A DNA stretch of 64,000 nt from Bacteroidia bacterium (lineage in GTDB: Bacteria > Bacteroidota > Bacteroidia > Flavobacteriales > Flavobacteriaceae). The stretch covers positions 118,126 to 182,125 of the forward strand of contig JAUIFO010000008.1 in the NCBI GenBank assembly GCA_030430385.1, written 5' to 3'. Positions 49,393-53,497 of the stretch are shown here, in pieces. The notes beneath the pieces were generated by a model that saw only the letters and a list, made by a program, of their open reading frames with translations, had not been told where the DNA came from and did not search any database. How positions within the stretch are numbered: the first letter of the stretch is position 1; each line of letters opens with the position of its first letter. Position numbers and translations under genes: made by a program.

Positions 49393-50430
49393 ATGAATAT
49401 ATGTTTTATCATGTATCCTTGGGAAAATATCGATCCTGAAAACGATACAAGTTTGGCCTTAATAAAGGAATGTGTGAAACGTCATCATGGTGTGGCTATG
49501 TGTACACCTGCAAACCTTACCATTAGAGATAGTGTTACCAACGCTTTTTGTACGGTTATTGGTCGAATGGATAAAGTACCATCGTCTTTGAAATCCTTCT
49601 ACAATAAAGCAAACTTAAGGGAAGAAATGTTGCCGCTGGCTGGTTTTGACGCGATCTTCTTTAGAGCAAATCCGCCTCTTGATCCTTTAATGTTAAACTT
49701 TTTAGATTCGGTAAAAGATGATGTGTTTATTGTAAACTCTTTACAAGGAATGCGTGAAGCTAATAACAAACTATATACTGCTGCATTTGGTGATGCGCAT
49801 AGTAACATTATTCCTAACACGCATGTGTCAAAAAATAAGAATTATTTGATTCAGCAAATTAAAGAATCAAAATCTGATAAGATGATCTTAAAACCGCTTA
49901 ACGGATTTGGTGGTTCAGGTGTTATTCTTATTGAAAAGTCGGCAATGAGTAATATCAATTCGCTTTTAGATTTTTACATTACCAGTGGTGACGGAACGTC
50001 AAATTATGTGATTCTTCAAGATTATATTGAAGGTGCCGATCAAGGTGATGTTCGTATTTTATTACTTAATGGTGAACCTGTTGGTGCTATGAAACGAGTT
50101 CCTGGTAGTGACGACCATCGTTCAAATGTATCTGCTGGTGGTTCGGTTCAAAGACATACGCTTACTAAAGCTGAAAAAGCTTTGTGTAAACAAATTGGTC
50201 CTAAACTGGTTAAAGACGGTTTATACTTTGTTGGTATTGATGTGATTGGCGGAAAACTTGTTGAAGTTAACGTGATGTCTCCTGGCGGAATTACTTACAT
50301 CAATAAAGTCTATAAAGCTAAGGTTAAAGTAGAAGAACGCGTTATTGATTTTCTAGAAAGTAAAGTACTAGATCAACTTCAAGCTTTTGATAGACGTGTG
50401 CGCCTAAGAAAGACCGTTGAAGACGCCTAA
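49393..50430 (+). CDS. prokaryotic glutathione synthetase-like ATP-grasp ligase
   Basis: By eye it aligns with E. coli GshB along its whole length: FFRANPPLD vs MRKDPPFD, NKLYTAAF vs EKLFTAWF, ILKPLNGFGGSG vs ILKPLDGMGGAS, GDVRILLLNGEPVG vs GDKRVLVVDGEPV, VGIDVIGGKLVEVNVMSP vs VGLDIIGDRLTEINVTSP. Confidence 0.8.
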   Translation: MNICFIMYPWENIDPENDTSLALIKECVKRHHGVAMCTPANLTIRDSVTNAFCTVIGRMDKVPSSLKSFYNKANLREEMLPLAGFDAIFFRANPPLDPLMLNFLDSVKDDVFIVNSLQGMREANNKLYTAAFGDAHSNIIPNTHVSKNKNYLIQQIKESKSDKMILKPLNGFGGSGVILIEKSAMSNINSLLDFYITSGDGTSNYVILQDYIEGADQGDVRILLLNGEPVGAMKRVPGSDDHRSNVSAGGSVQRHTLTKAEKALCKQIGPKLVKDGLYFVGIDVIGGKLVEVNVMSPGGITYINKVYKAKVKVEERVIDFLESKVLDQLQAFDRRVRLRKTVEDA

Positions 50431-50443
50431 ATAAAACCATTTC

Positions 50444-51496
50444 ATGCAAAAAATAAACAGATGGTTGATTGACCACATTTTTGAGGTATCAGCATACTTA
50501 TCATTAACAACACTTTTACTAATTGTGTTGACGTTTTCAGGAATGGATCATTCTCTTTTTGTCTATCCCAATATATTCAACTTCATTGCCTTGGAGCTTA
50601 ACTTTTTTGAGTTTGATATCTTTAGGTTAGAAATCGATAGAGAAGATGGATATATTACATCATTTAGTTATTTAGGAATAGCATTTAAAATACTTTTCAT
50701 TTTGGCCACTATTGTCTACAAAATATCAGACCATAAGCAAACTAAAATACTAAAATTCTGCTATTCTATTTTTTTAATAGTACCTGCAATTACCTTTATA
50801 CACCATATTGGTTTCTTTGTGCTTCTTGATGAGGTATATTATAACGAAGATTTTAACTTCACTAAAGAAATTTTATTTTCATTATTCCTATTCATTAAGA
50901 TTTTCATTTTGACCTATATCAGTTATTTATATTTGAATCATTGGCAAAAAAACACTGCTAATTTGAATAGCGAAAAACTTACAGTAAAGAACTTTTCAAA
51001 GTTTACACTTACTCCAGCTAGCTCGGCTCAACGATTTGTACATTTGATTATTGACTCATTTTTGATACTTAGTATTTTTTCTTTTGTGGGAACCTCTTTT
51101 ATTTACAGAGATCTACTAGGAGATGTCGAAGAAATATTTGGAGAACGTTTTGGCTTATGGATATTAGTAGTTTTCTTCAGTTCGATTTACTATTTAATTA
51201 CAGAAGGATTAGTTAAAGGATCTCCAGCTAAGTTTATTACCCAAACTACGATTGTAAATCTCAACAATGAGAAAGTTAGCTTTACCAATATCATTGGTAG
51301 AACTTTGTGCAGACGTATTCCGTTTGATGCCTTTTCGTTTCTAGGTCAGCCTGGATGGCACGATACACTGGCTTTTTCAACTGTAGTTAAACAAGAAAAA
51401 GAACCAAGTAAATACAACTGGATTTATATCATCTATTTCGTTTTATTTCTAGGTTTGTTGATATACAGAATTCTAGAAGAAAATCACTTTTTTTAA
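50444..51496 (+). CDS. polytopic membrane protein with C-terminal RDD domain
   Basis: An N-terminal half of about 5 TM segments, then an RDD-type module (AQRFVHLIIDSF ... GRTLCRRIPFDAFSF ... GWHDTLA). Confidence 0.6.
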   Translation: MQKINRWLIDHIFEVSAYLSLTTLLLIVLTFSGMDHSLFVYPNIFNFIALELNFFEFDIFRLEIDREDGYITSFSYLGIAFKILFILATIVYKISDHKQTKILKFCYSIFLIVPAITFIHHIGFFVLLDEVYYNEDFNFTKEILFSLFLFIKIFILTYISYLYLNHWQKNTANLNSEKLTVKNFSKFTLTPASSAQRFVHLIIDSFLILSIFSFVGTSFIYRDLLGDVEEIFGERFGLWILVVFFSSIYYLITEGLVKGSPAKFITQTTIVNLNNEKVSFTNIIGRTLCRRIPFDAFSFLGQPGWHDTLAFSTVVKQEKEPSKYNWIYIIYFVLFLGLLIYRILEENHFF

Positions 51497-51505
51497 TTTG
51501 AGATT

Positions 51506-52333
51506 ATGATACGATTAAGCATTCAGGATATTATTTCAAAAATTAATAATGAAGAGGTCTTTCATGCAGTGGCTGAAGACTATTCGTTTACTTTAAAAAT
51601 TGATGCCTATGTGCATTATGTCTGTGGTGCAGTTCATGACGGACATCAATTTAGAAAAGAACTCTGGGAGAATTGTATCCATACCGAATATGAGCGTTGG
51701 TATGAAGAAGACCCTGAAACAAAGCAAATGATACATTCGCATCCTATTGTGATGGCTGGATGTGATTCTAGATTTGAATATGATCTCAATAGAACTCCTG
51801 AAGAAGCTGTGTTTGAAACAGCTTGGGGAAAACAATTATGGAAATCACCTTTACCAGAAGCTCAAAAAACTAAAAGTCAGCAGAAGCACGCTAACTTTTA
51901 CAAAGTGGTTCATGCTTTAATTACTAAACTTGAAGAAAAATTTGGTGTATGCGTCGTATATGACATGCATAGCTATAATTGGAAACGTTGGGAAAGGGAA
52001 GTGCCTACATGGAATCTTGGGACTTCTAATGTAGATAATGATAAGTTTGGAAATGATATTGAATTATGGAGACAAAGCCTTTCAGAAATTGAATTTCCTC
52101 ACAATATCAAGTCCACTGCAAAAATCAACGATACCTTTCAAGGAAATGGATATTTTTTAAAATTCATTACTAATAACTTTAAAAATACCTTAGTTTTGGC
52201 AACAGAAATTGCAAAGGTGTATTGTGATGAATATGATCATATTATTTATCCCGAAGTTGTTGCAACCGTTACTAAATCGCTACGATCACGTTTGCCAGAA
52301 CACGCTGCTCATTTTTATAAAACGCATAGCTAG
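51506..52333 (+). CDS. N-formylglutamate amidohydrolase family protein
   Basis: FGase-like motifs: HDGH near the N-terminus, EYDLNR and VVYDMHSY. Confidence 0.65.
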   Translation: MIRLSIQDIISKINNEEVFHAVAEDYSFTLKIDAYVHYVCGAVHDGHQFRKELWENCIHTEYERWYEEDPETKQMIHSHPIVMAGCDSRFEYDLNRTPEEAVFETAWGKQLWKSPLPEAQKTKSQQKHANFYKVVHALITKLEEKFGVCVVYDMHSYNWKRWEREVPTWNLGTSNVDNDKFGNDIELWRQSLSEIEFPHNIKSTAKINDTFQGNGYFLKFITNNFKNTLVLATEIAKVYCDEYDHIIYPEVVATVTKSLRSRLPEHAAHFYKTHS

Positions 52334-52336
52334 ATA

Positions 52337-53497
52337 ATGCCGCAAATTACAAGTACAGAAGAATACCAAGATTTATTTGACATTGATGCTAACTTAAATA
52401 GGTTGGTAAAAAACATCGAATTACTCAATTATATCAATCCGCTTAATATTGAACGCGAAAAAAAACAATTCTTTTCATCTAAGTATAATTACGAACCGCA
52501 ATTTAAATATCCAAAACTAAAGTTTAATGGCTATAAATTGCATCGTTTATTTTTTTCGCAACGTTTAGAACGTATTGAAGATGAAGCGGTTCGTCAGTTA
52601 TATGAAGATGTGATCTATGAATATTCAGGATTAATAGAATGCATACAAACCATTAATCATGGTCGTAAATTTTATTACAATAGCTTAAAAAGTTTCGGAA
52701 CACCTATTGAAAAAGATATCGATAATGCAAAGTTCATTCTTCGATTTGACGACAGTGATTTTGATCAAGAGATGCTTCCTATGTATTCGGCAAAGGAAGC
52801 AGTAAACTATTTTGAAGACTATTCAAAGCGCTATGACTTTAACTATAACATAAAGTTATCGACAAACCTTTCCGCAGCAGCGATGGTTCTAAACAATACA
52901 CAAACATTGGTATTGCGTAAAAATCATAAGTTCAGTTTAAACCAGCTTAAAGTATTGACCAATCACGAAATAGGTGTACATATGGTTACGACTTTCAACG
53001 GATTGGCACAACCGTTAAAAATATTTTCTAATGGATTGCCTAATAATGTCGAAACACAGGAAGGTTTAGCGGTATATGCTGAATATATGTCTGGTTGTTT
53101 AACGATGAAGCGATTAAAAGAATTGGCTTATCGTGTTATTGCTGTCGATACTTTACATAAAGGATATGATTTTTCTGAAACATTTGATTTGCTACATAAT
53201 CAATATAAACTCAATAGAGATAAGGCTTTTGCAATTACCTTACGTGTGCATAGAGGAGGAGGTTTCACAAAAGATCACAAATATTTAAGAGGCATTACAG
53301 AAGTGTATAACTATGCGAAATCTGGAGGTGATTTAGATGTGTTGCTCACTGGTAAAGTTAGTTTAGAATATAAAGATGTGATTGCAAAACTTCAAAGTCT
53401 TGGTTTGGCTATTTCATCGAAGTATTTCACAGATTCGTATGAAACTAATGATAACTCAAATACCAACTTAGACTTCATTTTAAAGAGTTTAAAATAA
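52337..53497 (+). CDS. DUF1704 / QEGLA-motif protein (predicted Tyr/Phe carboxypeptidase-type gluzincin)
   Basis: NHEIGVH (HExxxH) followed about 30 aa later by ETQEGLAVYAEY. It starts 3 nt after the previous stop. Confidence 0.72.
   Translation: MPQITSTEEYQDLFDIDANLNRLVKNIELLNYINPLNIEREKKQFFSSKYNYEPQFKYPKLKFNGYKLHRLFFSQRLERIEDEAVRQLYEDVIYEYSGLIECIQTINHGRKFYYNSLKSFGTPIEKDIDNAKFILRFDDSDFDQEMLPMYSAKEAVNYFEDYSKRYDFNYNIKLSTNLSAAAMVLNNTQTLVLRKNHKFSLNQLKVLTNHEIGVHMVTTFNGLAQPLKIFSNGLPNNVETQEGLAVYAEYMSGCLTMKRLKELAYRVIAVDTLHKGYDFSETFDLLHNQYKLNRDKAFAITLRVHRGGGFTKDHKYLRGITEVYNYAKSGGDLDVLLTGKVSLEYKDVIAKLQSLGLAISSKYFTDSYETNDNSNTNLDFILKSLK

Follow-up and report, generated by a model that had tools for sequence, protein, structure and literature searches.

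Among the genes carried by a 64,000-nt stretch of DNA from a Bacteroidia bacterium of the family Flavobacteriaceae (GenBank assembly GCA_030430385.1, contig JAUIFO010000008.1; the whole stretch is hereafter called the window, and coordinates are positions within it unless given with a locus label), three enzyme genes form a unit that recurs beyond this family. The unit is a triad composed of an ATP-grasp ligase of the NF009110 subfamily that is paralogous to the glutathione synthetase GshB, an amidohydrolase with the fold of the N-formylglutamate amidohydrolase (FGase) family, and a HExxxH...E carboxypeptidase homolog of the MATCAP family, all three presumably cytoplasmic. Judged by gene content, the triad is conserved in at least three phyla, the Bacteroidota, the Chloroflexota and the Pseudomonadota (Alpha- and Gammaproteobacteria), and because the three enzymes are conserved across phyla and are also found fused to one another, they can be taken to work together. 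We propose, at a rough probability of 55%, that the triad runs a build-and-trim cycle in the cytoplasm, acting on a small peptide that contains Glu or Cys or on a small N-acyl-dipeptide, in which the ligase would be the writer and the two hydrolases the erasers.

The preliminary description of the window had suggested looking for co-occurrence of the three families in other phyla, and a survey anchored on the MATCAP-like protein, whose loci are labelled here by L-numbers, bore this out: the genes are co-conserved across phyla and even fused. In the window itself the three enzymes are adjacent on one strand and have intact active-site residues, and the closest relatives are found in Psychroserpens and Winogradskyella (Flavobacteriaceae), with identities of up to 92% for the MATCAP-like protein. 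The Flavobacteriaceae sample comprised the best 80 loci from a contig scan with a diverse alignment, all from this family and at 59-87% identity. Within it, the MATCAP-like gene is present in 80/80 loci, the FGase gene in 76/80 and the ligase gene in 73/80, three of the seven ligase misses being contig ends. Four loci from Flagellimonas, Maribacter and a Flavobacteriaceae metagenome-assembled genome (L075, L076, L078 and L080) have lost both ligase and FGase, and a gltP-like gene is followed directly by the MATCAP-like gene; the peptidase can persist without its partners.

Other phyla were reached through contig look-ups, a metagenome scan seeded with a distant clade of MATCAP-like proteins, the names of cluster members, and tblastn searches of plasmids and chromids. 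An exhaustive representative search returned 2301 clusters of MATCAP-like homologs, many of them 610-690 aa long, and in one group of these long homologs the N-terminal half is an FGase domain, so that counterparts of genes 3 and 4 of the window are joined in a Rosetta-stone fusion. Such a fused FGase-MATCAP gene is directly preceded or overlapped by a ligase gene in three of four loci from other Bacteroidota orders, amid unrelated flanking genes, and stands without an adjacent ligase in Eisenibacter (L081). The distant clade, whose clusters include members named Anaerolineae, was surveyed in 80 metagenome loci, 29 of which were evaluable (at least 1.1 kb on both sides of the MATCAP-like gene); within two genes of it lie a ligase gene in 25/29 and a separate FGase gene in 17/29, usually in the order FGase, MATCAP-like, ligase with 4-nt overlaps, the partners being on the opposite strand in some loci. 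No other neighbour recurs in this clade, the largest clusters having the appearance of antisense open reading frame (ORF) artefacts in GC-rich DNA. The N-terminal domain of the distant-clade proteins was not linked to FGase by BLASTP, but profile-profile comparison identified it as a degenerate FGase fold (hhalign probability 98%, E 2.6e-13) from which H44, the E91 segment and H155 have been lost. A single gene matches both FGase and ligase in L154 and L164, and Pfam confirms the fusion in L154. Additionally, two GshB-like ligase genes stand in tandem in L099 and L105, and L147 has two that flank the MATCAP-like gene to left and right; two successive ligation steps are possible in these loci.

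Among plasmids and chromids, matches were obtained in Sinorhizobium, Rhizobium, Ensifer, Pseudoalteromonas, Photobacterium, Vibrio and Legionella. Full triads are encoded on pSymB of S. meliloti, as FGase, N-domain-MATCAP and ligase, and in Photobacterium sp. GJ3, in the same order of ligase, FGase and MATCAP as in the window, while Pseudoalteromonas L169 has a MATCAP-like gene alone, adjoining a redoxin-domain gene. In Vibrio vulnificus, VV2_1203 (COG3930) and VV2_1204, annotated as a glutathione synthetase, are adjacent within clade-specific accessory DNA of chromosome II (PMC3091676). Across these lineages three kinds of fusion occur (FGase with MATCAP, FGase with ligase, and a degenerate FGase domain with MATCAP), and the MATCAP-like domain is as a rule tied to a partner of the FGase fold, which may be encoded by the neighbouring gene, fused as an active domain, or fused in degenerate form alongside a separate active FGase. 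Were the Flavobacteriaceae considered alone, their syntenic aroC-gltP-module-DCC1 neighbourhood could reflect vertical inheritance, and the genes might be neighbours by chance or through inherited synteny, with no function in common. However, the triad recurs in at least three phyla with other gene orders, other orientations and unrelated flanks and is fused in three different ways, so that we give fortuitous adjacency next to no credence; as far as comparative genomics allows, it can be taken as already refuted.

The same comparison removes a fourth protein from the system. Between the ligase and FGase genes of the window lies a gene (GC content 0.30) for a protein with seven transmembrane-like segments by hydropathy and an RDD domain at residues 192-339 (Pfam E 8e-8), which the preliminary description had placed in the cluster. 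An RDD homolog is detectable in only one of 73 flavobacterial loci (L002, at 42% identity; the flanking genes there are 80-95% identical), and the gene is absent from every other clade examined. In 46 of the 73 loci the slot is empty, the ligase and FGase genes abutting or overlapping by 4 nt, while 21 loci have a long insert and six a short one. Most of the long inserts consist of an ORF of about 275 aa; that of the Winogradskyella-like locus L005, checked against Pfam, is a tandem-rhodanese sulfurtransferase, and similar ORFs of this length fill the slot in most relatives in which it is occupied (L001, L004-L008, L011-L013, L015, L016, L018, L019, L021, L023, L024 and L064). That of L001 is fused to a 110-aa domain which stands alone in L014, L017 and L022. 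We therefore regard the slot as an insertion hot spot within a putative operon and the RDD protein as an incidental, lineage-specific insertion, ruled out by the slot survey as a module component. With the RDD protein outside the module, the further suggestion of membrane-associated handling of the substrate has nothing to rest on; the ligase, FGase-like and MATCAP-like enzymes have zero transmembrane segments in a hydropathy scan, and their N-termini, judged by eye, are unlike signal peptides.

The ligase is a GshB homolog, as first described: it matches E. coli GshB (1GSA) at E 5e-39 and about 31% identity, and it has the two-domain GshB architecture (Pfam GSH-S_N, E 6e-23, and GSH-S_ATP, E 6e-55). 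In E. coli numbering, K125, K160, D208, R210, R225, R233, N235, G239, G240, D273, E281 and N283 are conserved, and the lid loop is equal in length to that of E. coli GshB and keeps R233, N235, G239 and G240. The structural literature on E. coli GshB describes this loop as closing over small substrates, and because the loop and the catalytic residues are kept, the ligase sequence points to a small-molecule acceptor rather than a protein tail. At the level of subfamily, the best NCBIfam model for the ligase is NF009110/PRK12458, which bears the name 'glutathione synthetase' (459 bits vs a cut-off of 408), and its 233 bits on the TIGR01380 equivalog fall under the cut-off of 299. Triad ligases from five lineages score 428-501 bits on NF009110; E. 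coli GshB has the opposite pattern to the window ligase, with 222 bits on NF009110 and 496 on the glutathione synthase equivalog NF003573. Because all of the triad ligases pass the NF009110 model and E. coli GshB fails it, the former constitute a coherent subfamily distinct from canonical GshB. Between the window and Photobacterium L170 (4110-5126) the ligase is 60% identical, as compared with 43% for the FGase and 37% for the MATCAP-like protein, a value that would reflect either unusually strong constraint or transfer between phyla.

Does the triad, then, make glutathione? The ligase could be a genuine second synthetase of glutathione or of an analogue, with the hydrolases recycling glutathione, gamma-glutamyl peptides or thiol conjugates in a thiol salvage module. 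The complete set of GshB catalytic and lid residues is what such an enzyme would be expected to have, and the ligase also passes NF003573, if marginally (280 bits vs a cut-off of 272), although it fails TIGR01380 and authentic GshB lies outside its NF009110 subfamily. An indirect argument comes from Sinorhizobium meliloti 2011, whose pSymB encodes an intact triad ligase: a disruption mutant of SMc00419 (gshB) had no glutathione detectable by high-performance liquid chromatography (PMC7063052), and because glutathione was absent despite the triad, the ligase there does not seem to be a redundant GshB or to stand in for gshB. The placement of the V. vulnificus gene pair in clade-specific accessory DNA also speaks against a thiol-salvage role, as does the use of bacillithiol, not glutathione, that is reported for Flavobacteriia. 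The earlier remark that no gshA-like gene lies nearby was upheld, since no gshA/GCS-type gene was found among ORFs of at least 120 aa in the 30 kb scanned (33-63 kb of the window), which likewise counts against a second glutathione synthetase.

Thiol-related neighbours bear on the same question. In L086 (8991-11080), a Bacteroidota metagenome contig, a fused FGase-MATCAP gene overlaps a gene for BshC, a protein of bacillithiol synthesis, which is followed by DinB_2, an arrangement that hints at low-molecular-weight thiol metabolism. Inside the module, the tandem-rhodanese ORF of the Winogradskyella-like locus has similar counterparts in most of the 21 long-gap loci. A gene for a DCC1-like thiol-disulfide oxidoreductase lies convergently downstream of the module in 54/80 Flavobacteriaceae loci, and redoxin or AhpC genes adjoin the MATCAP-like gene in Pseudoalteromonas and Eisenibacter. 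Because of these scattered associations a Cys-containing peptide is kept in play as a substrate, but every one of the thiol-related neighbours is limited to one lineage. Taking the two sides together, we consider a second glutathione synthetase within a salvage module unlikely. Housekeeping glutathione synthesis is argued against, if indirectly, by the NCBIfam pattern, the S. meliloti mutant and the V. vulnificus accessory DNA, and the product of the triad is probably not glutathione.

For the putative carboxypeptidase, the motifs NHEIGVH and ETQEGLAVYAEY given in the preliminary description are both present, and its assignment to the DUF1704/QEGLA family holds: the MATCAP model PF08014 matches at E 9e-102 with 341 bits (cut-off 27) over 363 of 365 model positions. 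Its score on the TIGR02421 'QEGLA motif protein' model, 318.9 bits, falls short of the cut-off of 338.65, although RefSeq gives this name to close relatives. The proposed structural comparison with MATCAP was also borne out. The predicted structure has a pLDDT (predicted local distance difference test score) of 93.1, and human MATCAP heads its PDB matches (7z5g; probability 1.0, E 1e-9, template modelling (TM) scores of 0.55/0.63), ahead of M32 metallocarboxypeptidases; the two proteins can also be matched by sequence (E 3e-7). An alignment of 24 diverse homologs has H210, E211, H215, E242, E249, R266, R303, R306, K312, D313 and Y316 invariant, and the zinc motif (H210, E211 and H215 plus E242) aligns with HEIGTH and TEEGLA of human MATCAP. 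Fold and motifs (HEIGxH, (Q/E)EGLA and RxxRG...FxKDxxYL) are thus shared with the human enzyme, but the TM scores reach only 0.55-0.63 and identity is 19-20%.

The amidohydrolase belongs, as had been supposed, to the N-formylglutamate amidohydrolase family (FGase PF05013, E 8e-13, 49.5 bits vs a cut-off of 28.9). Its AlphaFold model (pLDDT 96.5) has as its best fold matches in the PDB 2q7s (TM score 0.72), 2odf and then M14 carboxypeptidases; 2q7s, a structural-genomics FGase, is only about 15% identical in sequence. The homolog alignment has no variation at H44, R64, E91 and D153 and next to none at H155, which is consistent with a metal site of the His/Glu/His type. Although Pfam family and fold are held in common with HutG, HutG function was rejected: the hutG equivalog TIGR02017 gave 19.5 bits against a cut-off of 278.75, and no hut genes occur among the neighbours.

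The pairing of an ATP-grasp ligase with a MATCAP-family carboxypeptidase recalls the tubulin tyrosination cycle, in which tubulin tyrosine ligase (TTL) is opposed by MATCAP or vasohibin, and the preliminary description had drawn this parallel. Applied to bacteria, it would mean that the ligase extends an acidic protein tail, as RimK does on ribosomal protein S6 and TTL on tubulin, and that the MATCAP-like and FGase-like enzymes trim it in a C-terminal writer/eraser cycle. Membership of the MATCAP family by both sequence and fold, the ligase-carboxypeptidase pairing itself and a match of the ligase to the RimK ATP-grasp domain (Pfam E 2e-18) would all fit. However, the ligase keeps a GshB-type lid loop; RimK and S6-glutamate ligase identities were rejected by scores far under the NCBIfam cut-offs (TIGR00768, 91 vs 143; NF007764, 43 vs 331), and TTL was excluded, being absent from the Pfam hits at E <= 0.01. 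Neither a conserved small ORF nor a candidate substrate gene accompanies the module in the clades surveyed, and outside the M14 peptidases we know FGase-family enzymes only as small-molecule amidases. Protein-tail editing therefore seems to us quite improbable. Against the tubulin cycle in particular, the bacterial ligase is paralogous to GshB, with a lid over a closed pocket, and does not belong to the TTL family, the triad has an obligatory third, FGase-fold enzyme, and there is no tubulin in the window's organism and no identifiable protein substrate. The analogy is accordingly disfavoured and would be at best a functional metaphor. That the triad should be a true tail-modification cycle on a bacterial protein or peptide, a forerunner of the logic of tubulin tyrosination with the RNA described below as a linked regulator, is a long shot.

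Under the build-and-trim cycle that we prefer, the ligase would start from a small acidic substrate, either a gamma-glutamyl dipeptide or a compound of the N-acyl-Asp/Glu type, whose carboxylate it would activate as an acyl-phosphate in a lid-closed, GshB-like pocket and then extend by one amino acid. The MATCAP-like enzyme would take off the added C-terminal residue and the FGase-like enzyme would cut the N-acyl-amino-acid amide that is left; to judge only from the fusions, the pair of hydrolases would probably act as a complex. In the Flavobacteriaceae, the adjacent GltP-type symporter might supply or remove the Glu/Asp building block, and it is because of this link that Glu or Asp is proposed in that role. 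The cycle as a whole would control how much is present of a small peptide metabolite that responds to salinity or redox conditions.

Several known systems offer partial precedents for such a ligase coupled to hydrolases that would reverse it. In the N-acetylaspartylglutamate (NAAG) system of animals, the ATP-grasp synthetases RIMKLA/B add a C-terminal Glu, glutamate carboxypeptidase II removes it, and aspartoacylase (M14/AstE-AspA fold) deacylates the product. The same three-step logic, acting on a small acidic N-acyl-dipeptide, is what we propose for the triad; however, the ligase and carboxypeptidase families differ, the animal genes are unclustered, and a NAAG-like substrate is an analogy only. 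Glutathionylspermidine (Gsp) synthetase/amidase and RimK/RimB are bacterial precedents for an ATP-grasp-type ligase coupled to a reversing hydrolase, with hydrolase families different from those of the triad: the Gsp hydrolase is a CHAP amidase and the system acts on glutathione and spermidine, whereas RimB is a retropepsin-like protease and RimK acts on S6. GshB itself (EC 6.3.2.3) has in common with the ligase the architecture, the level of identity given above and the catalytic, Mg, ATP and lid residues; it differs in that the triad enzyme falls in NF009110, is linked to two hydrolases and not to gshA, and does not make up for the loss of gshB in S. meliloti 2011.

A cycle is not the only way to combine these activities. 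In a one-way salvage route the peptidases would degrade an imported or endogenous peptide (N-acyl-glutamates, gamma-glutamyl or cell-wall peptides), and the ligase would re-use one of the products, so that what the ligase makes would not itself be a target of the hydrolases. The gene upstream of the module, of the SDF family (Pfam E 3e-123; best NCBIfam match GltP, below cut-off), is predicted to encode a GltP-like Na+/H+:glutamate/aspartate (dicarboxylate) symporter; it is found upstream in 66/80 Flavobacteriaceae loci, stays beside the MATCAP-like gene where ligase and FGase are lost, and would suit such a route, as would the AbgT-type (p-aminobenzoyl-glutamate) transporter encoded near the MATCAP-like gene in Pseudoalteromonas. 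Several genomes also have the hydrolases without an adjacent ligase. Such transporter links are lineage-specific, though, the symporter gene being unlinked in other phyla and not part of the core; no part of the module is periplasmic or secreted, and the FGase-ligase fusion of L154, together with overlaps of 4-8 nt that imply tight translational coupling, argues for a shared intermediate. We rate one-way salvage as distinctly unlikely.

The proposed cycle has its own difficulties, which should be set beside the evidence for it. The chemistry of the triad is read from family membership only, and so is the contact between the hydrolases from fusions only. If a ligase is co-transcribed with hydrolases that break down what it makes, a futile cycle follows unless there is post-translational regulation, and the hydrolases found without an adjacent ligase (L075, L076, L078, L080, L081 and L169) need not act on a ligase product at all. 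With all GshB catalytic residues kept and the NF003573 cut-off passed, glutathione or a close analogue may yet prove to be what the ligase makes. Finally, the argument from S. meliloti is weakened by the pSymB ligase being only about 28-32% identical to that of the window; this paralog may simply be silent, and the argument rests on laboratory conditions.

The layout of the locus is given in Table 1. Four same-strand ORFs separated by 13, 9 and 3 nt had been described, and both the gaps and the family calls for all four genes hold (Pfam GSH-S_N + GSH-S_ATP, RDD, FGase and MATCAP). A sigma-70 promoter scan was uninformative (28 sites vs 34 expected), and the public sequencing runs that contain the window sequence are DNA metagenomes only, with no RNA-seq runs among them.

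Table 1. Features of the ligase-hydrolase locus and its immediate surroundings in the window
Feature	Position	Strand	Remarks
GltP-like symporter gene	48008..49333	+	59 nt upstream of the ligase gene
Gene 1, GshB-paralog ATP-grasp ligase (proposed writer)	49393..50430	+	345 aa
Gene 2, seven-transmembrane-segment protein with C-terminal RDD domain	50444..51496	+	350 aa
Gene 3, FGase-fold (M14-like) metallo-amidohydrolase (proposed eraser 2)	51506..52333	+	275 aa
Gene 4, MATCAP/DUF1704 (QEGLA) gluzincin carboxypeptidase homolog (proposed eraser 1)	52337..53497	+	386 aa
Structured RNA element, about 150 nt	53495..53644	+	minimum free energy and covariance model
Terminator-like hairpin, 11 bp then T-run	53952..53977	not assigned	consensus scan

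The stop codon of gene 4 marks the beginning of a structured RNA element of three helices, with a minimum free energy of -39.6 kcal/mol (z -4.9). A covariance model built from eight sequences finds it in 17/86 sources, always on the operon strand and mostly from the stop codon, in a clade of the Psychroserpens/Winogradskyella/Hanstruepera type to which it is confined; examples are L001 9155-9308, L003 11026-11178, L004 9156-9313 and L012 3257-3405, and in L003 and L005 the element lies about 1.9 kb downstream instead of at the stop codon. In the 17 sequences, 22 of 30 pairs have compensatory changes and 90% of the cells are paired, as compared with 33-57% in slid controls; none of 500 shuffles reached the observed values. 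No Rfam family matched the element, which is lineage-specific and may be a small RNA of the 3' untranslated region, a terminator or a stabiliser. Further downstream, L001 and L003 share with the window an intergenic block (53737-53980) at 83-85% identity, an unusual degree of conservation for non-coding DNA. The block is closed by the hairpin listed in Table 1, between the module and the 3' end of the convergent DCC1-like gene, and gave a weak, sub-threshold Yfr10-like match in Rfam (E 0.009).

Elsewhere in the window, a DinB_2 gene, like the one beside BshC in L086, is located at 43207-43722. A gene run coding for thioredoxin-like, ApbE and DUF3570 proteins at 36539-39511, with an M14 carboxypeptidase gene after it at 41432-42571, is ordinary context. 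On the other side of the module, 57560-59113 (+) encodes a 517-aa protein of the thiol-activated (cholesterol-dependent) cytolysin family (PF01289, E 3e-66), a predicted homolog of such pore-formers in a marine flavobacterium, and upstream of it 56524-57543 (+) is a 339-aa lipoprotein-like ORF with no Pfam match.

Expression data are available for relatives of the triad. In Photobacterium damselae, the adjacent genes RS17020 (annotated as GshB) and RS17025 (QEGLA) were up 38-fold and 27.5-fold, respectively, at 1% vs 3.5% NaCl, placing them among the most induced genes at low salt, and the transcriptome study had already read the ligase paralog as GshB (PMC10308900). NCBI's label 'flavohemoglobin expression-modulating' seems to go back to an expression link between PA3697 and fhp that was reported for P. 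aeruginosa, a regulatory link that is apparently indirect; PA3697 is presumably a QEGLA protein. The literature yielded no biochemical study of bacterial DUF1704/QEGLA/MATCAP proteins (TIGR02421, PF08014, COG3930), and an earlier comparative-genomic mention is possible. The module is probably both widespread and mis-annotated. The triad would place bacterial relatives of MATCAP in a functional context, the only one known for them, and would throw light on the origin of this enzyme family; its active, fused and degenerate FGase partners predict a heteromeric peptidase complex. To identify the product of the triad would be to close a gap in what is known of small-peptide or thiol metabolism in bacteria, and might account for the strong induction of these genes at low salt in a fish pathogen.

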